From a bacterium (lineage in GTDB: Bacteria > Pseudomonadota > Alphaproteobacteria > Rhizobiales > JAKIUO01), in NCBI GenBank assembly GCA_024228495.1, contig JAAETJ010001012.1, positions 1,434 to 65,433 of the forward strand: 64,000 nucleotides of DNA, in the 5' to 3' direction. Shown piece by piece: positions 5,868-43,344 of the stretch. The position numbers and the translations under genes were made by a program. Each line of letters opens with the position of its first letter. Positions within the stretch are counted from its first letter, which is position 1. A model generated the notes under the pieces. The model did not search any database and was not told the origin of the DNA. It saw only the letters and a list, made by a program, of their open reading frames with translations.

Positions 5868-6689
5868 CTACCAGTCATTCATTTCAACGGCCGCGACTAT
5901 CGGGCCGCCATCTCCATCTTGCAAAAGAATAACACAACCATCTATGTTACCCTGCGAAATATGTTTTTTCGGCAATTTGACAGTCATTTTTTCGCCGTTC
6001 CAATGACCGATAGGCGTCAGGTTGCGGACCACATTATGATAGGTCAACAGCTTGCCGCGATTTTCGCCGCGGCGGATTTCGACACTTTCCTTCTTTGAAA
6101 CAAGCGCCATCCAAAGGGTAGCCTTTTTTTGCGGGCGTTTATTTTGCATATCGCCAACGGTGATAATAAGCGTGCCATCCTTGCTCCCAACACCAAGATC
6201 CACGGGAGGGTTTTTGGCCCGTGCCGCACGGCGTTTTTCAATCATTTCTTGAATGGCGCTCTCGTCGGCCCCATTATGATGCGAGAGACCATCGACAACC
6301 ACTTGTGGCGTATAAACATGACCGACGCGAAATTGTCTGGCATAGGAATGCTGGCGCTTGGTGAATTTTGCATGGCCAAACGTATCACGCCAGCCAAGAT
6401 AGTCCCAATAGTCAACGGACATGGAAAGAGCAATAATGTCTTCTTGAGCAATGAAAGTGGGAAGTAGAGCATCGGCGCTGGGGCATGAGGAACAACCCTG
6501 CGAGGTATATAGCTCAAGCAATATCTTGGAGGTACCATGGCGGAATTTCAGCATTGGGTCACCAGGAGCACTCATAGCTGGTAGCGTCATGAACAGTGAT
6601 ACCAACAATGCTAGGCCGTAAGCGCCTAACCTTGATAGAAAACATTGCGAATACTGGCTTATCTTCACGATTTGGCGTAATTTAAGCAT
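5868..6689 (-). CDS. DUF1223 thioredoxin-like secreted protein
   Basis: LLELYTSQGCSSCPSAD, VDYWDYLGWRDTF, VYTPQVVVDG, RGENRGK..YHNVVR; N-terminal signal-like segment. Confidence 0.88.
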   Translation of the reverse strand: MLKLRQIVKISQYSQCFLSRLGAYGLALLVSLFMTLPAMSAPGDPMLKFRHGTSKILLELYTSQGCSSCPSADALLPTFIAQEDIIALSMSVDYWDYLGWRDTFGHAKFTKRQHSYARQFRVGHVYTPQVVVDGLSHHNGADESAIQEMIEKRRAARAKNPPVDLGVGSKDGTLIITVGDMQNKRPQKKATLWMALVSKKESVEIRRGENRGKLLTYHNVVRNLTPIGHWNGEKMTVKLPKKHISQGNIDGCVILLQDGDGGPIVAAVEMNDW

Positions 6690-7022: not shown

Positions 7023-7799
7023 ATGGCGGAATTTGACAATCAGGGATATGCGCAATCAGAAGCTGGTTCGCGCACTTCGTACGATGCGGGCCTGCGCGCC
7101 TATATGTTCAGTGTCTATAATTATATGGCCATTGGCATCGCCCTCACCGGCGTTATTGCCTATGCGTTTTTCAGCATGGCAACTACCCAGGACCCTTCAT
7201 TGGCAGTGGCATCGTTGGGCAATGGCACCATGCTTACTGAACTTGGTCGCACAATTTATATCTCTCCCCTGAAATGGGTCTTGATGTTTGCACCACTTGG
7301 AATGGTCATGCTGTTCGCTGCCACCGCCCATAAAATGAGCCCTTCTATGGCTCAGATGGTCTTTTGGGGCTTTGCAGTGCTGATGGGAATGTCACTATCC
7401 TCCATCTTTATTCGCTATACTGGCACCTCAATCTCACGCGTGTTCTTTGTCACTGCGGCTTCTTTTGGGGCGCTTAGTCTTTATGGCTATACCACCAAGA
7501 AAAACCTGTCTGGCTGGGGCACCTTCTTGTTTATGGGCGTGATCGGCGTGATTATCGCTTCCATTGTTAACATCTGGCTGCAGAGCTCGGCTCTGCAATT
7601 TGCCGTTTCGACGATCGGTGTTCTGGTGTTTGCTGGCCTCACCGCCTACGACACACAGCGTATCCGCGAAACATACCAATATGTTGCTCATGATGCAGCT
7701 GCCGTCAAAAGCGCCGCCATCAACGGGGCTCTGTCGCTCTATCTGGACTTCATCAACATGTTCTTGATGATGCTGTCATTATTCGGCGGCGACGAATAG
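7023..7799 (+). CDS. Bax inhibitor-1/YccA family membrane protein
   Basis: YDAGLRAYM..VYNYM, YGYTTKKNLS, GLTAYDTQRI, GALSLYLDFINMF; about 7 TM segments; GAGG upstream. Confidence 0.92.
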   Translation: MAEFDNQGYAQSEAGSRTSYDAGLRAYMFSVYNYMAIGIALTGVIAYAFFSMATTQDPSLAVASLGNGTMLTELGRTIYISPLKWVLMFAPLGMVMLFAATAHKMSPSMAQMVFWGFAVLMGMSLSSIFIRYTGTSISRVFFVTAASFGALSLYGYTTKKNLSGWGTFLFMGVIGVIIASIVNIWLQSSALQFAVSTIGVLVFAGLTAYDTQRIRETYQYVAHDAAAVKSAAINGALSLYLDFINMFLMMLSLFGGDE

Positions 7800-7910: not shown

Positions 7911-8285
7911 CTAGACCATTGCCAGGCGGGGTTTTGGTTCGAGGATCCGTAGCACCATCTCCAGATCGCGGCCACGCTTCAATATTTGGCCTCCCGGAGC
8001 GATCACACTATAAACGCCTTGACGTCGCGCCAATTTAGGATTTTTTTCGACCCGATAAAGCGGCACTTCGCTGGCATGGCGAAAGATCGAGAACACCGCC
8101 CGTTCCTTCAGCATATCGATCGCGTAGTCGCGCCATTCACCCGCCCCTACCTGCAGCCCATAGAGCCCCAGGATCAAGTCAAGCTCGGTCCGATTAAAGG
8201 AAACCACCTGCTCCTCATGTGAGCACCTGGTGCCGCTCACATGGCCGGTGCTCAGCTTTATTATTATTGGGTCACCTTCGCTCAC
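7911..8285 (-). CDS. DUF2794 domain protein
   Basis: FNRTELDLILGLYG..V.AGEWRDYAID, AVFSIFRHASEVPLYRVEK, QILKRG; GTG start with GGAGG. Confidence 0.9.
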   Translation of the reverse strand: MSEGDPIIIKLSTGHVSGTRCSHEEQVVSFNRTELDLILGLYGLQVGAGEWRDYAIDMLKERAVFSIFRHASEVPLYRVEKNPKLARRQGVYSVIAPGGQILKRGRDLEMVLRILEPKPRLAMV

Positions 8286-8476
8286 AACGCCTCCTGCTGA
8301 ATTGCAATACTCTACCTGTAAGAGTGCGCCCCAATGATCCGCGGGTCAAGCGCACAAGCTCTAAGGGCCGCTTCTCAATTGGGTAAATATTAACAAGGCC
8401 GTAAAACCTACGCGAAATCATCACGAAACTGCCCTATTAAAGTCTTTAGGGAGCCGCAATGTAATGATCTCTTGAT

Positions 8477-8654
8477 GATGTTGCAGATGTTCGGCTTCCG
8501 GGACTAAAGACGATTTTGGAAAATAGCCCCCAAGCCCCTTTCCAAGGCCTGACCTGGAAGTCGAACCGCAACAGATCTTTTAAAGAGCGCTCCACTCCCT
8601 TTTTGTGATCCCGATGTAGAGTTACTCAAGCTGGCGTCCCCAACGCCAGCTTTT
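8477..8654 (+). ncRNA. Putative structured sRNA, copy 1 (C-rich loop)
   Basis: 14-bp stem 8489-8502/8553-8566 (two G-U), outer stem TGTTGC/GCAACA, inner stem TTGGAAA/TTTCCAA with loop ATAGCCCCCAAGCCCC; orphan terminator 8628-8654 between divergent genes. Ends approximate. Confidence 0.65.
8628..8654 (+). terminator. Orphan rho-independent terminator (end of putative sRNA copy 1)
   Basis: AAGCTGGCGT-CCCCA-ACGCCAGCTTTT; no plus-strand CDS upstream. Confidence 0.75.
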
Positions 8655-8769
8655 GTGTTATTAGGGCAACGGTCTGGTAAATCGCGCCCAATATTACAAA
8701 CTGGTAAGTATTACCACAGTCTCGCCCTATTTTTTCCGCCGTTCCGCCCCATTCCATTGCCAAAAAACA

Positions 8770-8872
8770 GATGTTGCCTGGCTCGGTTTATCCTACAGGT
8801 TTCGGATTTAAAGCCCCCCAGCCCCTCCGAACCATCAAGATGAACCGGGCCTTCAACGCTCCCCCCCTTTTT
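8770..8872 (+). ncRNA. Putative structured sRNA, copy 2 (paralog of copy 1)
   Basis: Starts GATGTTGC like copy 1; 13-bp stem 8780-8792/8839-8851; inner stem TTCGGA/TCCGAA with loop TTTAAAGCCCCCCAGCCCC; ends GCTCCCCCCCTTTTT. Confidence 0.55.
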
Positions 8873-8942
8873 CATTGTGATTTGCTCTCAACTCACCTAA
8901 AACCTTGTGAAATATTTTATTGAACAAGGGAATTGAACGGCC

Positions 8943-10925
8943 ATGACATCATCAGACGAACAGAGCGAAACAAACAACGAAACAATCAATGAAACATCTT
9001 ATGAGTTTCAAGCCGAAGTCGCGCGACTACTGGAGCTGATGGTGCATTCGGTCTATTCCGAACGCGAGGTGTTTTTGCGCGAGTTGATCAGCAATAGTGC
9101 CGATGCCCTCGATAAATTGCGCTATAAAGCGCTCACCGATGAAACCATGATGCCCGATGATCTTAAACTGGCCATCACACTTGTTGCCGACAAGGAGACC
9201 AAGACGCTCACCATCATCGATAATGGCATCGGTATGAGCAAGTCTGAACTGGTGGAAAATCTTGGCACCATCGCGCGCTCTGGTACCAAGGCCTTCATTG
9301 ATCAAATCAAGCAAGGTGATGACAGCAATAAGGCAAGCCCTGACCTCATCGGTCAGTTTGGCGTTGGCTTCTATGCCGCTTTCATGGTGGCTGACCGCGT
9401 TGATGTTATTTCCAGGAGAGCTGGATCAGATGAAAGCTTTCAGTGGACCTCGGATGGGAAAGGGATGTTTGACATCACCGCCCTTGAACAAGAACAAGCT
9501 TTTGGCACCAGCATCACCCTACATTTGAAGGACGATGCTGTGGAATTTCTTGAAGAAAGCGAAATCCAGCGCATCGTGCATACCTATTCTGATCACATTT
9601 CCTTCCCTATCTTCCTCAAAGGCGAGGAAAAGGCACCGACGGATAATGATGAGAAGAGCGAGACGGAGGATGCACAGCAACAGCTCAACGCCGCCAATGC
9701 TCTTTGGACCCGCTCCAAAAACGACATTACCCCTGAGCAGTACAAAGAATTTTATCACCATACGGCCAGCGCCTTTGATGATCCGGCCTTGACCATTCAC
9801 TACACCGCCGAGGGGCGCCAGCTTTATACCAGCTTGTTATTCGTGCCCTCCATGCCGCCTTTTGATCTTTATGACGCCCAGCGCAGCGCCCATATCAAAC
9901 TGTTTGTAAAACGCATTTTCATTACCGATGATGCCGAAATCCTACCCCCTTATCTGCGCTTTGTGCGCGGCATCGTCGATAGCGAAGACATCCCCCTCAA
10001 CTTGTCGCGCGAAATGCTGCAAAATAATCCGCTGCTCGCATCCATCCGCAAAGCAGTGACTAACAAAGTATTGTCTGAGCTGACCAAGCTGGCCGACAAT
10101 GAAGCGGAAAAATATTTGCAGGTCTGGGAGCATTTTGGGGCCGTCATGAAAGAAGGCCTCTATGAGGACGTCGAGCGCCGCGACACGCTTTACAAACTGA
10201 CGCGCTTCAAATCGACCCTTAACGAACTCGACACCAGGGTTGAGAGCGACAAGTCCGATGACACTGGTTGGCGCTCCCTTGACGACTATATCAAAGACAT
10301 GCCCGAAGGCCAGACCGCCATCTATTATCTGGCGGGCGACAATATGGATCAGTTGAAAGCCAGCCCGCAGCTTGAAGGATATATGGCCCGCGGCCTTGAG
10401 GTATTATTGCTTGCCGATCCGGTCGACAGCTTCTGGGTGTCAACCGCGGCCGGGTTTGAGGGCAAACCCTTCACCTCGATTACACAAGGGTCTGCAGCTC
10501 TTGATGACTTGCCCGTACAAGAGGGTGACGAAACTGAAAAATCTGATGATAGTGATAGCGACGCTCTGCTAGATCGCATGAAAACGGCGCTCGTAGAAGA
10601 TGTCGCCGATGTGCAAAAATCATCCCGCCTTGTCGCCAGCCCCGCCTGCCTGATCGCCTCGGCGCAAGCTCCCGACCGGCAGCTGGAAAAAATGCTGGCC
10701 CAGCAAAAAGGCGGTTCCATACCAAGCGTCAAACCAATCCTTGAGATCAATGCCTCGCACGCGATGGTCAAAGCGCTCAACAGCGCCATTATTGATAATA
10801 AGGAAAAGCGTTTTAGCGACCTTGCCTTTTTGCTGCTTGATGAGGCTCGTATTCTGGAAGGCAATGCACCAAAAGATCCTGCGAAATTTACGGAGCGTTT
10901 GAACAGGCTGTTGCTGGAGGGGTAG
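8943..10925 (+). CDS. htpG: Molecular chaperone HtpG (Hsp90)
   Basis: FQAEV..LL.LMVHSVYS.REVFLRELISN, DNGIGM, NLGTIARSGT, IGQFGVGFY, DIPLNLSREMLQ. Confidence 0.97.
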   Translation: MTSSDEQSETNNETINETSYEFQAEVARLLELMVHSVYSEREVFLRELISNSADALDKLRYKALTDETMMPDDLKLAITLVADKETKTLTIIDNGIGMSKSELVENLGTIARSGTKAFIDQIKQGDDSNKASPDLIGQFGVGFYAAFMVADRVDVISRRAGSDESFQWTSDGKGMFDITALEQEQAFGTSITLHLKDDAVEFLEESEIQRIVHTYSDHISFPIFLKGEEKAPTDNDEKSETEDAQQQLNAANALWTRSKNDITPEQYKEFYHHTASAFDDPALTIHYTAEGRQLYTSLLFVPSMPPFDLYDAQRSAHIKLFVKRIFITDDAEILPPYLRFVRGIVDSEDIPLNLSREMLQNNPLLASIRKAVTNKVLSELTKLADNEAEKYLQVWEHFGAVMKEGLYEDVERRDTLYKLTRFKSTLNELDTRVESDKSDDTGWRSLDDYIKDMPEGQTAIYYLAGDNMDQLKASPQLEGYMARGLEVLLLADPVDSFWVSTAAGFEGKPFTSITQGSAALDDLPVQEGDETEKSDDSDSDALLDRMKTALVEDVADVQKSSRLVASPACLIASAQAPDRQLEKMLAQQKGGSIPSVKPILEINASHAMVKALNSAIIDNKEKRFSDLAFLLLDEARILEGNAPKDPAKFTERLNRLLLEG

Positions 10926-23586: not shown

Positions 23587-24255
23587 ATGGACATACAACG
23601 CCTTGACGGCCCGCACATCAGCTCCTTATCCGGGACGACCAAACAATTAGTCATTATTCTCCATGGATATGGGGCCGACGGGAACGATTTAATCCCACTT
23701 GGCCGACAATGGCAGCAAATGTTGCCCAATGCGGAGTTCGTGGCGCCCAATGCCCCACAATTTTGTCAAAACCCGCCCATGGGCTATCAGTGGTTTCCTT
23801 TGAACGTCACCATACAGGGGGTAGTCTCGACACCCCAGGAGCGCTGGGACGGGGCACTGGCTGCCACGCCATCGCTTGATGCCTTTATCGATGCGGAACT
23901 GGCGCGTACAAAGCTTGACCCGTCAAATCTGGCTCTGGTTGGTTTCTCGCAAGGGGCCATGATGGCGCTACATGTTGGTTTGCGCCGCACCCCCTCACCG
24001 GCAGCTATTGTCAGCTATTCAGGTATGCTGCTGGGGCCGGATCATCTGGACACCATCACCGCTAAATCGCCCGTTTTTCTGGCCCACGGATCTGTGGATG
24101 AAATCGTCCCTTTTGAGGCCATGTCGTTGAGCAAGCAGGCCCTCACAAGCATCGATATAGACGTCACGTCCTATGTCGAAGAGGGCATGGGGCATGGCAT
24201 TGATGGCGAAGCGACCTGGCTAGCAGGCGAGTTTCTGGTCAAAAGTTTTATCTGA
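23587..24255 (+). CDS. Phospholipase/carboxylesterase (alpha/beta hydrolase)
   Basis: LHGYGADGNDL, GFSQG nucleophile, HGSVDEIVP, GHGI. Confidence 0.9.
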   Translation: MDIQRLDGPHISSLSGTTKQLVIILHGYGADGNDLIPLGRQWQQMLPNAEFVAPNAPQFCQNPPMGYQWFPLNVTIQGVVSTPQERWDGALAATPSLDAFIDAELARTKLDPSNLALVGFSQGAMMALHVGLRRTPSPAAIVSYSGMLLGPDHLDTITAKSPVFLAHGSVDEIVPFEAMSLSKQALTSIDIDVTSYVEEGMGHGIDGEATWLAGEFLVKSFI

Positions 24256-24760
24256 TCACGCGATTGCCGCAATAGTTTTCGTGAGCTTGGCGGGCTGCCA
24301 GAACCAGCGGTTTATAAGCCAGTCCCAAACGGCTCACGCCCCGGCAAACACTATTGTCGAGGCTGGCCATGAAGCAGCTATGGCTCGTTTTGTCGATTAC
24401 ATCGTCTAAATGATAATCGGTCATCTGGTAGATGCCTTTGAGCCTATTTTTTTTCATGGTTTTCGATAAATTTCCCGTAAATTCCAGATAGATGGCAGGT
24501 TCTTCCTGTCGTAGAGCTTTGGCGTATTTTTTGTGCGCCGATCCCATTCGTTGTTCGATTTCGGTGCAATCAGGAGAAGACGAGCTGCTCGATCGACCAA
24601 AACCAAATGAAGGAAATGAGTACGTCGACAGGCTGGTACAGCCAGAAAGGCCAATGGCAAGAACCATCAAGGGTGCGAACAAGGAACGCCGATCACGCGC
24701 CAAGCACAAAAATGTTTTTTGGCATCTAATTAAATAATAATAAAACAAAAACAAATACAT
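24248..24760 (-). CDS. Hypothetical lipoprotein
   Basis: Lipobox LSGC, Ser-rich linker, four further Cys; true start may be the TTG of LARDRR rather than ATG 24760. Confidence 0.6.
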   Translation of the reverse strand: MYLFLFYYYLIRCQKTFLCLARDRRSLFAPLMVLAIGLSGCTSLSTYSFPSFGFGRSSSSSSPDCTEIEQRMGSAHKKYAKALRQEEPAIYLEFTGNLSKTMKKNRLKGIYQMTDYHLDDVIDKTSHSCFMASLDNSVCRGVSRLGLAYKPLVLAARQAHENYCGNRVIR

Positions 24761-24879
24761 GAAAGCCCCCCAGCCCTTACATTATCTGTACCCTGCTTTA
24801 TAGGACCAATGCAAGTCTATGTACCCGGCGGCACCACGGTGATCGCCAACTATACTTTGCTGATCTGACGAGATGTGCT

Positions 24880-40445: not shown

Positions 40446-41108
40446 CTACCCCACCACAATCACGTGCAGGTGGCACGGGCCATGGGCACCGGTGATGAGG
40501 GTTTGCTCGATATCGGCGGTACGCGAGGGACCAGAGATAAAATTGACGGTGCGGGGCATTTGCGGGCCGCGCGTGCCCCAGGGTAATTTCAGCCAGGCAT
40601 CTTCATAAGAACCGACAATATCGCGCACACGGATCAGCACAATATTGGTCTCTGGAAGAAAACTAAGGGTCACAGGATTTTCGGGACCAGAGGCGACAAA
40701 CAGGGTGCCAGTTTCAGACACACCGGCAAACGCGTGTGTCAAGGAGAGGACATCTTCTCCAGTTGCCGGTCCCGACATTATTACGAGATCAGATTGCTCG
40801 CTCCAGTCAATTTCGCCAATCAGTTTATCCGCGCCGCATTTAAGCTGATGGGCCAAATCGTTGACAATCATATATCGAGCTACTTCGCTGGCAACGTCCG
40901 CCAATTCTGACAGGTGAGCCACTGTCGCCTCGACGCTTTCAAGCATTTTGATAAAGTTATCAACCAGCTCTGGATGAGAGCGCAATGCTCTTTCGGGGAT
41001 CAGATTGCGCGCATGGTCATCAAGATGTTTGCGCACCACTTCAAGGCGTTCGGGATCACTTGCCGTAACACCAAGAGCGCGGCGAATATTTTTAACAAAA
41101 CCGTTCAC
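40446..41108 (-). CDS. lutC: Lactate utilization protein C (LutC/LldG, LUD domain)
   Basis: ETGTL, LSFLP, ISGPSRTADIEQTL..GAHGP. Confidence 0.9.
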   Translation of the reverse strand: MNGFVKNIRRALGVTASDPERLEVVRKHLDDHARNLIPERALRSHPELVDNFIKMLESVEATVAHLSELADVASEVARYMIVNDLAHQLKCGADKLIGEIDWSEQSDLVIMSGPATGEDVLSLTHAFAGVSETGTLFVASGPENPVTLSFLPETNIVLIRVRDIVGSYEDAWLKLPWGTRGPQMPRTVNFISGPSRTADIEQTLITGAHGPCHLHVIVVG

Positions 41109-42532
41109 AAGCGCCCCTCCCTTTGATGTTTTTTCAGCAAGGACATGAAGGTTTTACCACTGGGGGCTGGCAGGTCTCGGCTATTCGTCCAGCCAGTGGC
41201 CAATGGTAACCAGCGAAAGTTTCGCTTGCACCCTGCAAGTTTTGCAAGCAACGGCATCACTATGCCGGTCATAAATTGATAGAGTCTTGGTCGTTTGGCG
41301 ACAATGACCCAAGCGGTTAGAGAGCTTCGCACCAAAACGGGTAGTCCCCCCCCTTGATGATGTTTTTCGCGCCATTTGCGCATCAGATCCGGCAGCTTGA
41401 TCCCCATGGGACATACCTGTTCACAGCGCCCACATAAACTCGAAGCGTTCGGCAAATCAGCAGCTTCATCAAGACCCAGAAACGAGGGGGTCAAAACAGC
41501 ACCAATGGGGCCTGGATAAACCCAGCCATAGGCATGCCCACCGATTGATTGATAGACCGGGCAGTGGTTCATGCAGGCCCCGCAACGAATACAGCGCAGC
41601 GCCTCAGAAAACTCACCAGCCAGCTGTTCTGTCCGGCCATTATCCAGTAAGACCACATGATATTCTTGTGGCCCATCCAGATCTTGCGAGCGTCTCGGCC
41701 CTGTCGAAAAGGTCGTGTAAGTGGTGATGGATTGCCCCGTTGCGGAGCGTGCCAGCACGCGTACCAACGTGCTCGTATCGTTTAAGGTTGGCACCAGCTT
41801 GTCGATGCTGGTGATGACGATATGAACGGGGGCCAGCGATTGCGTCAGGTCGCCATTGCCCTCATTGGTAACAATCACCGATGAGCCAGTTTGAGCGATA
41901 AGGAAATTGGCACCGGTGATGCCAATGTCAGCATTGATAAATTCACTGCGCAACATGTTACGCGCTTCAAACACAAGCGCGGCCGGGTCGCTAAGATCGC
42001 GCCCCGCAGGCAGCTCCTTGTGCACCCGGCGAAAATCCGCTTCGACCTGATCGGCACCCACATGCACAGCAGGGGCAACGATATGACTGGGGGGTTCGTT
42101 GCGCAACTGGATAATATATTCTCCAAGATCGGTTTCAAGAACCCGCAATCCCGCTTCTTCGAGATGGTCATTGAGACCGATTTCCTCGGCCACCATGCTC
42201 TTGCCCTTGGTAATCAGTCGGGCATTTTTATCGCGGCAAATCTGTAATATCTGCTCGCAGGCATCCGCTGCCGTATGCGCCAAATGCAAATGCCCACCGC
42301 TGGCGACAAGCTGTTTTTCATAGACCTCCAAATAAAGATCCAGATGCTTCAGCGTATGCGTTTTTATGGCTTGGCCCTGCTGACAAAGCTCATCAAATTC
42401 CGGCAATGCAGCTCGCGCTTTTGCTCGTTTTTCGACGAAGCCACGGCCCAATACTTTCAGAGATTTTTGCAAGCGCTGGTTTTTGAGGGCATCTTGAGCA
42501 TTTTCTTTAAAGGAGCCAGCGGTAGATTTCAT
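41105..42532 (-). CDS. lutB: Lactate utilization protein B (LutB/LldF, Fe-S)
   Basis: KGKSMVAEEI, ETDLGEYIIQL, PSHIVAPA, CIRCGACMNHCPVY, SSLCGRC.QVCP. Confidence 0.93.
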   Translation of the reverse strand: MKSTAGSFKENAQDALKNQRLQKSLKVLGRGFVEKRAKARAALPEFDELCQQGQAIKTHTLKHLDLYLEVYEKQLVASGGHLHLAHTAADACEQILQICRDKNARLITKGKSMVAEEIGLNDHLEEAGLRVLETDLGEYIIQLRNEPPSHIVAPAVHVGADQVEADFRRVHKELPAGRDLSDPAALVFEARNMLRSEFINADIGITGANFLIAQTGSSVIVTNEGNGDLTQSLAPVHIVITSIDKLVPTLNDTSTLVRVLARSATGQSITTYTTFSTGPRRSQDLDGPQEYHVVLLDNGRTEQLAGEFSEALRCIRCGACMNHCPVYQSIGGHAYGWVYPGPIGAVLTPSFLGLDEAADLPNASSLCGRCEQVCPMGIKLPDLMRKWREKHHQGGGLPVLVRSSLTAWVIVAKRPRLYQFMTGIVMPLLAKLAGCKRNFRWLPLATGWTNSRDLPAPSGKTFMSLLKKHQREGRL

Positions 42533-43344
42533 TTCTGCTTCCCCTGCTTTGGCCCCTTCATCCCGGCAATTGGCGGCTCATCACTCATACCTGCCAATAT
42601 TTCTGCCACATGACGCACCTCGATAGAGCTGCCATCGCGGGATAGTTTTCCCGCCATATTCATCAAACAACCCATATCGCCGCCTAGTAGCATCTGCGTA
42701 TTCGCAGCTTCTATATTAGCACATTTCTTACTGACCATCGCATCCGAAATTTCGGGATATTTAACGCAGAACATACCGCCAAACCCGCAACAGGCCTCCC
42801 CGTCTGACAACTCCGATAACTCAAGGCCGCGCAAGGAGTTGAGCAATGCCCGCGGCTGCTGTTTGACGTTGAGCTCGCGTAATCCAGCACACGCATCGTG
42901 ATAGGTGATGCGCCCGGCAAAACCCCGGTCAACGCTTTGCAAGCCGCATTTATCGACCAAAAAACTTGTGAGCTCGAAAACCTTGTCTGCAAATGAGATT
43001 GCCCGCTCATACTGGTCGGTGTCTTTTAGCAATTCTGGATAATGGGTTTTCAGCATACCGGCGCAGGACCCGGACGGGGCGACAACATAATCAAAACTCT
43101 CAAAATTCTTGATGACCTCAATGGCAAGCTCTTGGGCGGCCTGGCGATCACCAGAATTATAGGCGGGCTGACCGCAACAGGTCTGGGTCAGTGGCACCGA
43201 CACTTCACAACCCGCTTCTTGCAGCAGTTTCATGGCCGCAAACCCAACCACCGGGCGAAATAGATCCACAAGGCAAGTGACATACAAGGCAACTCTTGGC
43301 AAACCAACTTGCGGGACGTGGAGGGAGTTGATATTTTCGGCCAA
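42529..43344 (-). CDS. lutA: Lactate utilization protein A (LutA/LldE, CCG domains)
   Basis: TCLVD, QTCCGQP.YNSG, PSGSC, YHDAC, CCGFGG; TTG start behind AGGAG. Confidence 0.92.
   Translation of the reverse strand: MAENINSLHVPQVGLPRVALYVTCLVDLFRPVVGFAAMKLLQEAGCEVSVPLTQTCCGQPAYNSGDRQAAQELAIEVIKNFESFDYVVAPSGSCAGMLKTHYPELLKDTDQYERAISFADKVFELTSFLVDKCGLQSVDRGFAGRITYHDACAGLRELNVKQQPRALLNSLRGLELSELSDGEACCGFGGMFCVKYPEISDAMVSKKCANIEAANTQMLLGGDMGCLMNMAGKLSRDGSSIEVRHVAEILAGMSDEPPIAGMKGPKQGKQK

Follow-up and report, generated by a model that had tools for sequence, protein, structure and literature searches.

The 64-kb window analysed here, a stretch of contig JAAETJ010001012.1 from an uncultured alphaproteobacterial lineage, holds two small RNA (sRNA) units in tandem on its plus strand. 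They lie in a gap of 657 nucleotides (nt) between a DUF2794 gene (7911-8285, minus strand; Pfam E = 2.5e-37), the divergent neighbour that is conserved with this sRNA family, and the HSP90 gene htpG (8943-10925, plus strand; Pfam HSP90 E = 2.4e-110). The htpG gene starts 70 nt 3' of the T run of unit 2 and has the same orientation as that unit, while a DUF1223 gene at 5868-6689 lies, as seen from the units, beyond DUF2794 and a Bax1-I gene. Each unit carries GGTAAAT (8382-8388 in unit 1, 8676-8682 in unit 2), then CAC-N6-GCCCTATT, with GCCCTATT at 8431-8438 and 8724-8731, and, at a spacing of 46 nt in both, GATGTTGC (8477-8484 and 8770-8777). Further on come the C-rich loop sequences AGCCCCCAAGCCCC (8525-8538) in unit 1 and AGCCCCCCAGCCCC (8812-8825) in unit 2. 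These motifs had been picked out in a sequence-only reading of the same DNA, and its motif coordinates, the 46-nt spacing, the stems, the C-rich loops and the tails were all confirmed by direct reading and folding.

Relatives of the locus were collected in one genome scan with HtpG as query. It gave 599 matching stretches, of which 563 were confirmed, and 79 distinct loci were retained. By HtpG there are three close relatives (84-87% identity), all of them unclassified alphaproteobacterial metagenome genomes; next come Methyloligellaceae at 57-58% and one Hyphomicrobiaceae genome at 56%. One of the close relatives, L003, comes without upstream DNA, and the other two, L001 and L002, contain both units at 86-93% DNA identity. 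In the Methyloligellaceae loci L004 and L005 a single unit separates DUF2794 from htpG, and a second hairpin and a strong terminator come after it. In L063 (Hyphomicrobiaceae) a pyrD-like gene and htpG flank a tandem pair of units, both with terminators of their own, and L036 has one unit, 1.4 kb from its DUF2794 gene. As in the window, a unit lies directly upstream of htpG in L004, L005 and L063. Window unit 2 is 67% identical to unit 2 of L063 and 60% to the L004 unit, compared with 52% to window unit 1. This greater closeness to the htpG-proximal units elsewhere marks unit 2 as the conserved copy and unit 1 as a fast-diverging paralogue, and by its sequence unit 2 (from about 8767) is the counterpart of the copy next to htpG in Methyloligellaceae and the one Hyphomicrobiaceae genome. 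The duplications in the window's lineage and in L063 may be one event or two. Two features of these relatives may be recorded separately. L006 is a second copy, on the L004 contig, of the whole DUF2794-sRNA-htpG locus, identical over the 611 upstream bases compared, and reflects either a large duplication or an assembly artefact. In L036 an 18-nt unit, TACAAATTGGCCCTTCAT, is tandemly repeated just 5' of the sRNA unit (about 1874-1925 of that locus).

Both units fold into a three-tier hairpin. Its outer stem is GUUGC/GCAAC or GUUG/CAAC, the middle one has 14 or 13 base pairs (bp) and the inner one 9 or 8, and the apical loop of both units carries AGCCCCC(A/C)AGCCCC. In the minimum-free-energy (MFE) fold of unit 1 the main hairpin spans 8474..8577 on the plus strand, with outer arms at 8479-8484/8568-8573, the 14-bp middle stem at 8489-8502/8553-8566 and the 9-bp inner stem beginning at 8514. 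Its apical loop, with AGCCCCCAAGCCCC, occupies 8523..8538 by sequence and fold and is identical in L001 and L002. The fold has an energy of -40.3 kcal/mol (z = -2.70; one of 200 dinucleotide shuffles as good) and is retained in L001 and L002, where the changes preserve the pairs. Sequence and fold then give a single-stranded C-rich linker, GCTCCACTCCCTTTTT, at 8589..8604 of the plus strand, and beyond it an intrinsic terminator at 8628..8657 on the same strand, consisting of a 10-bp stem (8628-8652), a UCCCC loop and a T run (z = -4.22), with a compensatory T-A to C-G change in the stem in both L001 and L002. Unit 1 (about 8474-8657) is a complete stand-alone gene, with hairpin, C-rich linker and a terminator of its own. 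The sequence-only reading was right to see a terminator here and wrong to call it an orphan, since it belongs to unit 1 itself. At the 5' end of unit 1 there is also a 9-nt tandem near-repeat (8477-8494; GATGTTGCA followed by GATGTTCGG), which may be the reason why the unit 1 hairpin exceeds that of unit 2 in length.

The unit 2 hairpin (8770..8861, plus strand), placed by its MFE fold and by alignment to the Rfam family BjrC174, has the GUUG/CAAC outer stem, a 13-bp middle stem at 8780-8792/8839-8851 and an 8-bp inner stem. It folds at -34.9 kcal/mol (z = -4.28), a value matched by none of 200 dinucleotide shuffles. The core of its apical loop (8807..8825, plus strand, with AGCCCCCCAGCCCC) is the same in L004, L005, L063 and L036 and is shortened in Sinorhizobium meliloti and Shinella. 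A C-rich tail, GCTCCCCCCCTTTTT (8858..8872, plus strand), leads to the T run without a terminator hairpin before it; L063, L036 and S. meliloti likewise have C-rich linkers 3' of their hairpins. In unit 2 the T run lies 11 nt past the last stem and is interrupted in L002 (TTTAT), and a terminator scan found no terminator-like site for unit 2 between 8770 and 8942. A recognisable terminator hairpin may have been lost in the window's lineage, with the transcript ending at a weak U run or reading on into htpG.

Covariation was examined in three alignments; a MAFFT alignment of all 11 units, which put the 5' and 3' arms of unit 1 out of structural register, was dropped. The alignment with no structure fitted (MAFFT, 8 sequences, unit 1 rows excluded) has an RNAalifold consensus of 21 pairs. 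Its cells are 89.9% paired and 8 pairs are changed on both sides, a number reached by 2 of 500 shuffles, and sliding the pairing partner by one column cuts pairing to 51-60% (maximum 59.6%). Model R1, built from this alignment and so from window unit 2 and its relatives, with no Sinorhizobium sequence and no BjrC174, was searched in the window and the 79 loci. The unit-2-type copies score 56-91 bits, all of them being training sequences (window unit 2, 87.4 bits), and the unit 1 copies 15-18 bits at E of about 1-3 (window unit 1, 16.7 bits, E = 1.5). Within the 64-kb window R1 found no third copy, its matches being the two plus-strand units and one minus-strand mirror image. A 13-row fitted alignment, made from 19 rows by removing five minus-strand rows (a 47-nt L044 match among them) and L006, identical to L004, consists of plus-strand rows and includes unit 1; it is 92% paired, and both sides have changed in 14 of its 21 pairs, a count that 6 of 500 shuffles attain. 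The second fitted alignment, 8 rows from six lineages, adds S. meliloti and Shinella, both outside the R1 training set. It leaves out L001 and L002, which are near-identical to the window and whose mirror-image matches would pass the cut-off, and the unit 1 rows fall below its E-value cut-off. Here 90.1% of cells are paired, 14 of the 21 pairs are changed on both sides, and none of 500 shuffles reaches any of the five measures.

Between the two window units themselves, 8 of the 21 pairs of the model-guided alignment differ on both sides and 4 on one side, 8 are identical and 1 is non-standard in both. The earlier statement that the stems differ almost entirely was therefore too strong, while its companion, that both units nevertheless pair, stands. 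The plus-strand structure contains 30 G-U cells and 5 A-C cells, and the T-run terminators, found after unit 1 and in L004, L005, L063 (both units), L036 and S. meliloti, are all on the plus strand. The functional strand is the plus strand, because of this excess of G-U over A-C cells, the plus-strand terminators and the start sites of the homologues described below, which lie on the strand opposite DUF2794. The idea of two sibling sRNAs whose structure is under selection is thus borne out by covariation, by the plus-strand terminators and by the G-U excess.

At gathering score, Rfam gives no match in the whole window and tRNAs alone in seven related loci. By E-value, the sole match in 8250-8960 is to RF02355 (BjrC174), covering unit 2 at 8693-8872 and model positions 1-201 with 27.1 bits (E = 0.007), the gathering score of that family being 45 bits. 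RF02355 is also the top or only Rfam match in L004 (27.6 bits), L063 (21.3 and 14.1), Shinella (35.5) and S. meliloti (33). The sequence-only reading had expected a catalogued alphaproteobacterial family, and there is one, but its example, BjrC1505, has no match at E <= 10 in 8250-8960, BjrC174 taking that place; for 8380-8880 the outcome is no strong hit and a sub-threshold RF02355 match to unit 2 only. According to the available part of PMC4842269, BjrC174 is an abundant sRNA, a primary transcript, with a very active promoter that fits none of the motifs mapped there, RpoD and RpoN included. The supplement of that paper, as available, places its start site in Bradyrhizobium japonicum at 504030 (+), where the peaks are 4808 and 15810 high, and its terminator at 504109-504150. 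This start falls between bll0464 (DUF2794, minus strand) and bll0465 (DUF1223). From the start and the end of the terminator, the BjrC174 RNA would be about 120 nt long, with Rfam model positions 1 to about 80 representing upstream DNA, and a start at model position of about 81 implies that the window RNAs likely begin a few bases before GTTGC, near the starts proposed in the sequence-only reading.

The window units resemble BjrC174 in the three-tier hairpin (7 + 11 + 9 pairs in the model), in an apical loop core of CAGCCCCCAGCCCC, in the C-rich linker after the hairpin, in being divergent from DUF2794 and in a start site just before the hairpin. They differ in being two tandem copies rather than one, in lying between DUF2794 and htpG instead of DUF2794 and DUF1223, and in a host outside Bradyrhizobiaceae. 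Unit 2 differs also at the 3' end: where the model has its terminator (about 178-201), it fills 4 of 25 positions and forms no stem. Unit 1 has the terminator at 8628-8652.

The DNA in front of the hairpins gives a less uniform picture. The unit 1 upstream region (8380..8473, plus strand) has GGTAAAT, GCCCTATT and a -10-like TGTAAT at 8460-8465, which reads TGAAAT in L001 and L002; as far as its sequence goes, this region might act as a promoter. In the unit 2 upstream region (8676..8769, plus strand) the block GCCCCATT at 8745-8752, about 28 nt before GTTGC, is common to window unit 2, L063 unit 2 and L036 and aligns with a conserved stretch of the RF02355 model; the region as a whole aligns with RF02355 positions 1-80, upstream of the mapped BjrC174 start. 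The sequence-only reading had proposed an upstream regulator site shared by the two units. In L001 and L002, at 86-93% identical DNA, the GGTAAAT before unit 2 is replaced by GTGTGAAT or TTATGAAT, and GCCCTATT has become GCCGTATT at unit 2 and GCCCCAAA or GCCCCAAT at unit 1, which speaks against such a site. An exact 8-mer at equal offset in both units is unlikely to have arisen by chance and looks like a residue of the duplication, not a constrained site. Readings by eye of these motifs and of GCCCCATT as RpoH-like, RpoN-like, EcfG-like or sigma-70-like elements gave no consistent spacing and were set aside.

A search of the plasmid collection with the DUF2794 protein led to several large replicons, from which six loci were fetched and scanned with R1. 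In three of the six there is a match opposite DUF2794, in the gap just upstream of it: Shinella with 34 bits (E = 4.3e-6), S. meliloti with 28.4 bits (E = 8.4e-5) and, weakly, Rhizobium sp. NLR16a with 14.3 bits (E = 0.13); the DUF2794 loci of Methylobacterium, Ruegeria and Sphingomonas gave no R1 match. The RF02355 matches in Shinella and S. meliloti fall at these R1 positions. The S. meliloti and Rhizobium sp. NLR16a hairpins are flanked by DUF1223 and DUF2794 genes, as in B. japonicum. The S. meliloti gap, SMc03844-SMc03845, is where the sRNA GspR (SmelC775) is encoded (PMC5928217). The available text of that paper describes GspR as a 144-nt RNA of three stem-loops with a predicted energy of -66.30 kcal/mol, which builds up in stationary phase, is Hfq-independent and has a promoter without a known signature. 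In reporter assays described there it is a trans-acting repressor that base-pairs with ctrA mRNA through stem-loop 1 and with cspA5 mRNA through stem-loop 3 (PMC5928217). Folding of the 144-nt RNA from this gap likewise gave three stem-loops, at -66.0 kcal/mol, and the R1 match is the second of them.

The window hairpin thus corresponds to stem-loop 2 of GspR (28.4 bits with R1, 33 bits with RF02355) and, like it, is on the strand opposite DUF2794. In GspR the loop is shorter (CAGCCCCAGCCCC). Also unlike the window, where DUF2794 is adjacent and htpG is the other flank, the GspR locus has the order DUF1223, opposite-strand sRNA, DUF2794. The 5' stem-loop 1 of GspR, with the ctrA seed (nt 13-22), has no equivalent in the window units: the 62 nt 5' of the unit 2 hairpin lack structure (-0.9 kcal/mol, z = +1.61), and the corresponding stretch of unit 1 is no more stable than its shuffles (z = -1.09). 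From the shared architecture, the loop sequence, the synteny and the sub-threshold model scores in both directions, we infer that GspR, BjrC174 and the window units would form one family. The core of that family would be the long three-tier hairpin, the nearly invariant loop CAGCCCC(CC)AGCCCC, a single-stranded linker rich in C and, in most cases, an intrinsic terminator. DUF2794 is the neighbour of the sRNA in B. japonicum, S. meliloti, Rhizobium, L001, L002, L004-L006 and L036, and in L063, L078 and L060 the RNA is found with no DUF2794 gene within the fetched flanks. The last two are of a compact form, at 1586-1665 of L078 and 1656-1735 of L060, with the loop CAGCCCCCCAACCCCG and a T run directly after the hairpin, upstream of a gene for an ABC-transporter ATPase. 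R1 gives them 21.4 bits (E = 0.13) and 18.6 bits (E = 0.55), respectively, and they may be distant compact members in which the hairpin doubles as terminator. A loop motif in L027 was rejected as a chance occurrence inside a coding region.

Both window RNAs would be expected to act in trans by base-pairing, the exposed C-rich loop and linker binding G-rich ribosome-binding regions and so blocking translation; judged from the known homologues, trans base-pairing is the most likely mode. A crude target test was made, in which four C-rich single-stranded segments were folded against the start regions of 55 roughly called open reading frames (ORFs) of the window. The best candidate is a site at 24762..24776 in the minus-strand mRNA, which reads GGGCUGGGGGGCUUU and is perfectly complementary to the unit 2 loop (8810-8824) over 15 nt. 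It covers the ribosome-binding site (RBS), or Shine-Dalgarno region, of the ORF at 24248-24760 (minus strand), ending 1 nt before the ATG at 24760. The duplex of the loop with this start region has an energy of -34.9 kcal/mol, against a mean of -8.8 (standard deviation 6.2, n = 55) and a next best of -21.9. The complement is the longest exact match of either unit in the window; a length of 15 nt was reached by 2 of 200 shuffled sRNAs and the duplex energy by 1 of 300 shuffled loops.

The ORF encodes a lipobox-like LSGC and has no Pfam family; the protein collection contains 22 homologues, one of which is the predicted protein of the window itself. It may be described as an unannotated lipoprotein-like protein and, as the best candidate target in the window, it is a lead. 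Most of the aligned homologues start at the same M-Y-L, so the ATG next to the candidate site is the start kept in most of them. Two homologues have a frame that is open upstream, reading WGPF-M and GGPF-M, and this means that in them, too, the DNA directly 5' of the ATG should be rich in G. No homologue of this ORF occurs in the fetched loci, and within each locus no complement of its own loop exceeds 11 nt. A third sRNA copy at 24.7 kb was also considered for this match and rejected in favour of a target site, the plus strand there being unstructured (z = +1.56) and without an R1 match. The earlier suggestion that the C-rich loop binds G-rich 5' untranslated regions (UTRs) has this one candidate site in the window in its favour; the tested GspR seeds lie elsewhere, and the suggestion may be kept as a lead. 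As a separate observation, a lutABC-like three-gene operon (LUD and CCG domains; 40446-43344, minus strand) has unusually G-rich ribosome-binding sites, which rank next when paired with the C-rich tails and loops, with energies as low as -24.2 kcal/mol.

Comparable sRNAs are found in other groups. AbcR1/AbcR2 and the CCUCCUCCC 'cuckoo' RNAs are tandem sibling sRNAs of Alphaproteobacteria with anti-Shine-Dalgarno motifs. The window units are like them in being tandem paralogues with exposed pyrimidine-rich motifs, which are thought to pair with ribosome-binding sites. Neither family has an Rfam match at E <= 10 in 8250-8960, and CCUCCUCCC does not occur in 8380-8880; it is mentioned as a loop motif in the available text of PMC3927594. 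The 6C RNA (RF01066) likewise has no match at E <= 10 in 8250-8960, and in L063 reaches a chance-level 17.6 bits (E = 9.8). It consists of two short hairpins, as against the one long three-tier hairpin here, and belongs to the Actinobacteria, an unrelated phylum. Its working mode appears similar: 6C binds several mRNAs through C-rich loops without needing RNA chaperones, according to the part of PMC6486639 available, and GspR too is reported to be Hfq-independent.

As a whole, the observations are best explained by two paralogous plus-strand sRNA genes of the BjrC174/GspR family that act in trans by base-pairing, and we consider this explanation probable. The sRNA family is known; what is new is these divergent, duplicated members. 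A number of points weigh against the explanation. Every Rfam family scores below its gathering score, as do the scores that tie GspR, BjrC174 and the window units together, and unit 1 has no Rfam match at all at E <= 10; with this and its 16.7 bits in R1, the membership of unit 1 rests on its paralogy with unit 2. A promoter scan found nothing in front of either unit, and unit 2 is without a terminator hairpin. Both model-fitted alignments lean towards structure by construction, and the unfitted alignment agrees with them. The target site is a single case, from crude gene calls in 64 kb, with shuffle odds of about 1/100 to 1/300 that are not overwhelming. By the available text of PMC5928217, the GspR seeds with experimental support belong to stem-loops 1 and 3, and the C-rich loop of stem-loop 2 is not among them. 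Finally, GspR is described as confined to Sinorhizobium, and the parts of PMC5928217 and PMC3927594 available to us do not mention Bradyrhizobium.

Unit 2 could instead be mainly a cis-acting 5' leader of htpG, co-transcribed with it and tuning its expression. The missing terminator and the distant T run, broken in L002, would agree with this, as would the result of the promoter scan, which found no sigma-70-like promoter between unit 2 and htpG, and the occurrence of a unit directly 5' of htpG, in the same orientation, in three lineages. There is also a hairpin at 8903-8929, with CCTTGT/ACAAGG pairing, that covers the htpG Shine-Dalgarno sequence and is retained in L001 and in L002, the latter having an A-to-G change that keeps the pairing as G-U. 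From its predicted fold it could be a thermosensor, but in two of the three genomes it is no stabler than shuffles (z = -0.3 and -0.85, against -2.2 in the third). The same htpG-proximal unit is, however, closed by a strong terminator in L004, L005 and L063, and the B. japonicum and S. meliloti homologues are not adjacent to htpG at all. BjrC174 and GspR are moreover discrete RNAs of about 120 and 144 nt (available parts of PMC4842269 and PMC5928217). Service as a leader, which would not preclude the additional release of unit 2 as an sRNA, seems to us rather unlikely as its main role.

The RNAs might also work mainly through the invariant loop by binding a protein or other conserved partner rather than by pairing with mRNAs, as a sponge or ribonucleoprotein, the DUF2794 protein being one thinkable partner. 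The loop core has stayed nearly invariant though the stems have turned over, which is more than variable mRNA targets would need. BjrC174 is very abundant (the peak heights of 4808 and 15810 given in PMC4842269, as available), GspR is reported as Hfq-independent in the available text of PMC5928217, and the synteny with DUF2794 extends across at least four families. That synteny may, however, mean just that divergent neighbours share a regulatory region, and L063, L078 and L060 have the RNA with no DUF2794 within the fetched flanks. GspR, in addition, does base-pair in the reporter assays of PMC5928217, and nothing about the DUF2794 protein marks it as RNA-binding. The DUF2794 family occurs widely, with E <= 1e-5 for 7998 of 8000 scored candidates, and an AlphaFold model of the protein from a 31-sequence alignment has a pLDDT (predicted local distance difference test) of 81.4, with a confident core of a helix, five strands and a helix. 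No solved structure matches this model at E <= 0.001, the best TM-score being about 0.3-0.4. On the model, the DUF2794 fold is uncharacterised, and the candidate role as an RNA-binding protein was dropped as unsupported. A protein partner as the main mode of action is thus, in our judgement, very doubtful. A functional transcript from the minus strand (a G-rich-loop RNA or a long DUF2794 5' UTR), or units that are non-functional dispersed repeats, is scarcely credible: the minus strand does fold well (-47.9 and -40.2 kcal/mol; z = -3.12 and -2.26) and an antisense RNA, SmelC776, overlaps gspR in S. meliloti (available text of PMC5928217 and PMC3927594), but the 30 plus-strand G-U cells would turn into A-C mismatches, the T-run terminators are all on the plus strand, the mapped BjrC174 and GspR starts are on the strand opposite DUF2794, and two copies only in 64 kb, at one syntenic place per genome, are unlike REP (repetitive extragenic palindromic) or MITE (miniature inverted-repeat transposable) elements.

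The two sRNA genes link two experimentally studied RNAs that have been described as confined, BjrC174 to Bradyrhizobiaceae and GspR to Sinorhizobium, and extend the family to Methyloligellaceae, one Hyphomicrobiaceae genome, Shinella and the uncultured lineage of the window. Modestly new are the proposal that BjrC174 and GspR are one, the constancy of DUF2794 as neighbour and the position upstream of htpG in three lineages, together with the apparent terminator loss in unit 2 and a single candidate target of the conserved loop. Should the link hold, it is the C-rich hairpin that is conserved in these RNAs, the stem-loops with the known GspR seeds being the part that is not, and the constant neighbour would give a handle on a protein family of unknown function. 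The Rfam thresholds miss all of these members, so a rebuilt model would improve annotation. A bolder proposal, one we would put forward with considerable reserve and think distinctly unlikely in its full form, is that BjrC174 and GspR are one ancient sRNA of the Hyphomicrobiales, co-inherited with DUF2794. The ancestral function would have resided in the invariant loop CAGCCCC(CC)AGCCCC, which either would be recognised by a conserved partner (perhaps the DUF2794 protein) or would serve as a seed for G-rich ribosome-binding sites. In the window this would be seen in the 15-nt duplex at the ORF 24248-24760, and the tandem copy would have diverged towards a second set of targets.

Some smaller observations concern other RNA families near DUF2794 genes. 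RF02497 (Atu_C10) scores 28 bits in Shinella. In Methylobacterium bullatum (L082 1555-1629, minus strand) a sub-threshold match to suhB/MmgR (RF00519; 26.2 bits, gathering score 41) lies upstream of DUF2794 on the opposite strand, at the place where the BjrC174-type hairpin is missing. The Bax1-I gene of the window (7023-7799) is without a ybhL leader match in Rfam at gathering score, and a ybhL leader of 78.9 bits precedes the YccA/Bax1-I gene of Rhizobium sp. NLR16a (L084 4208-4277).

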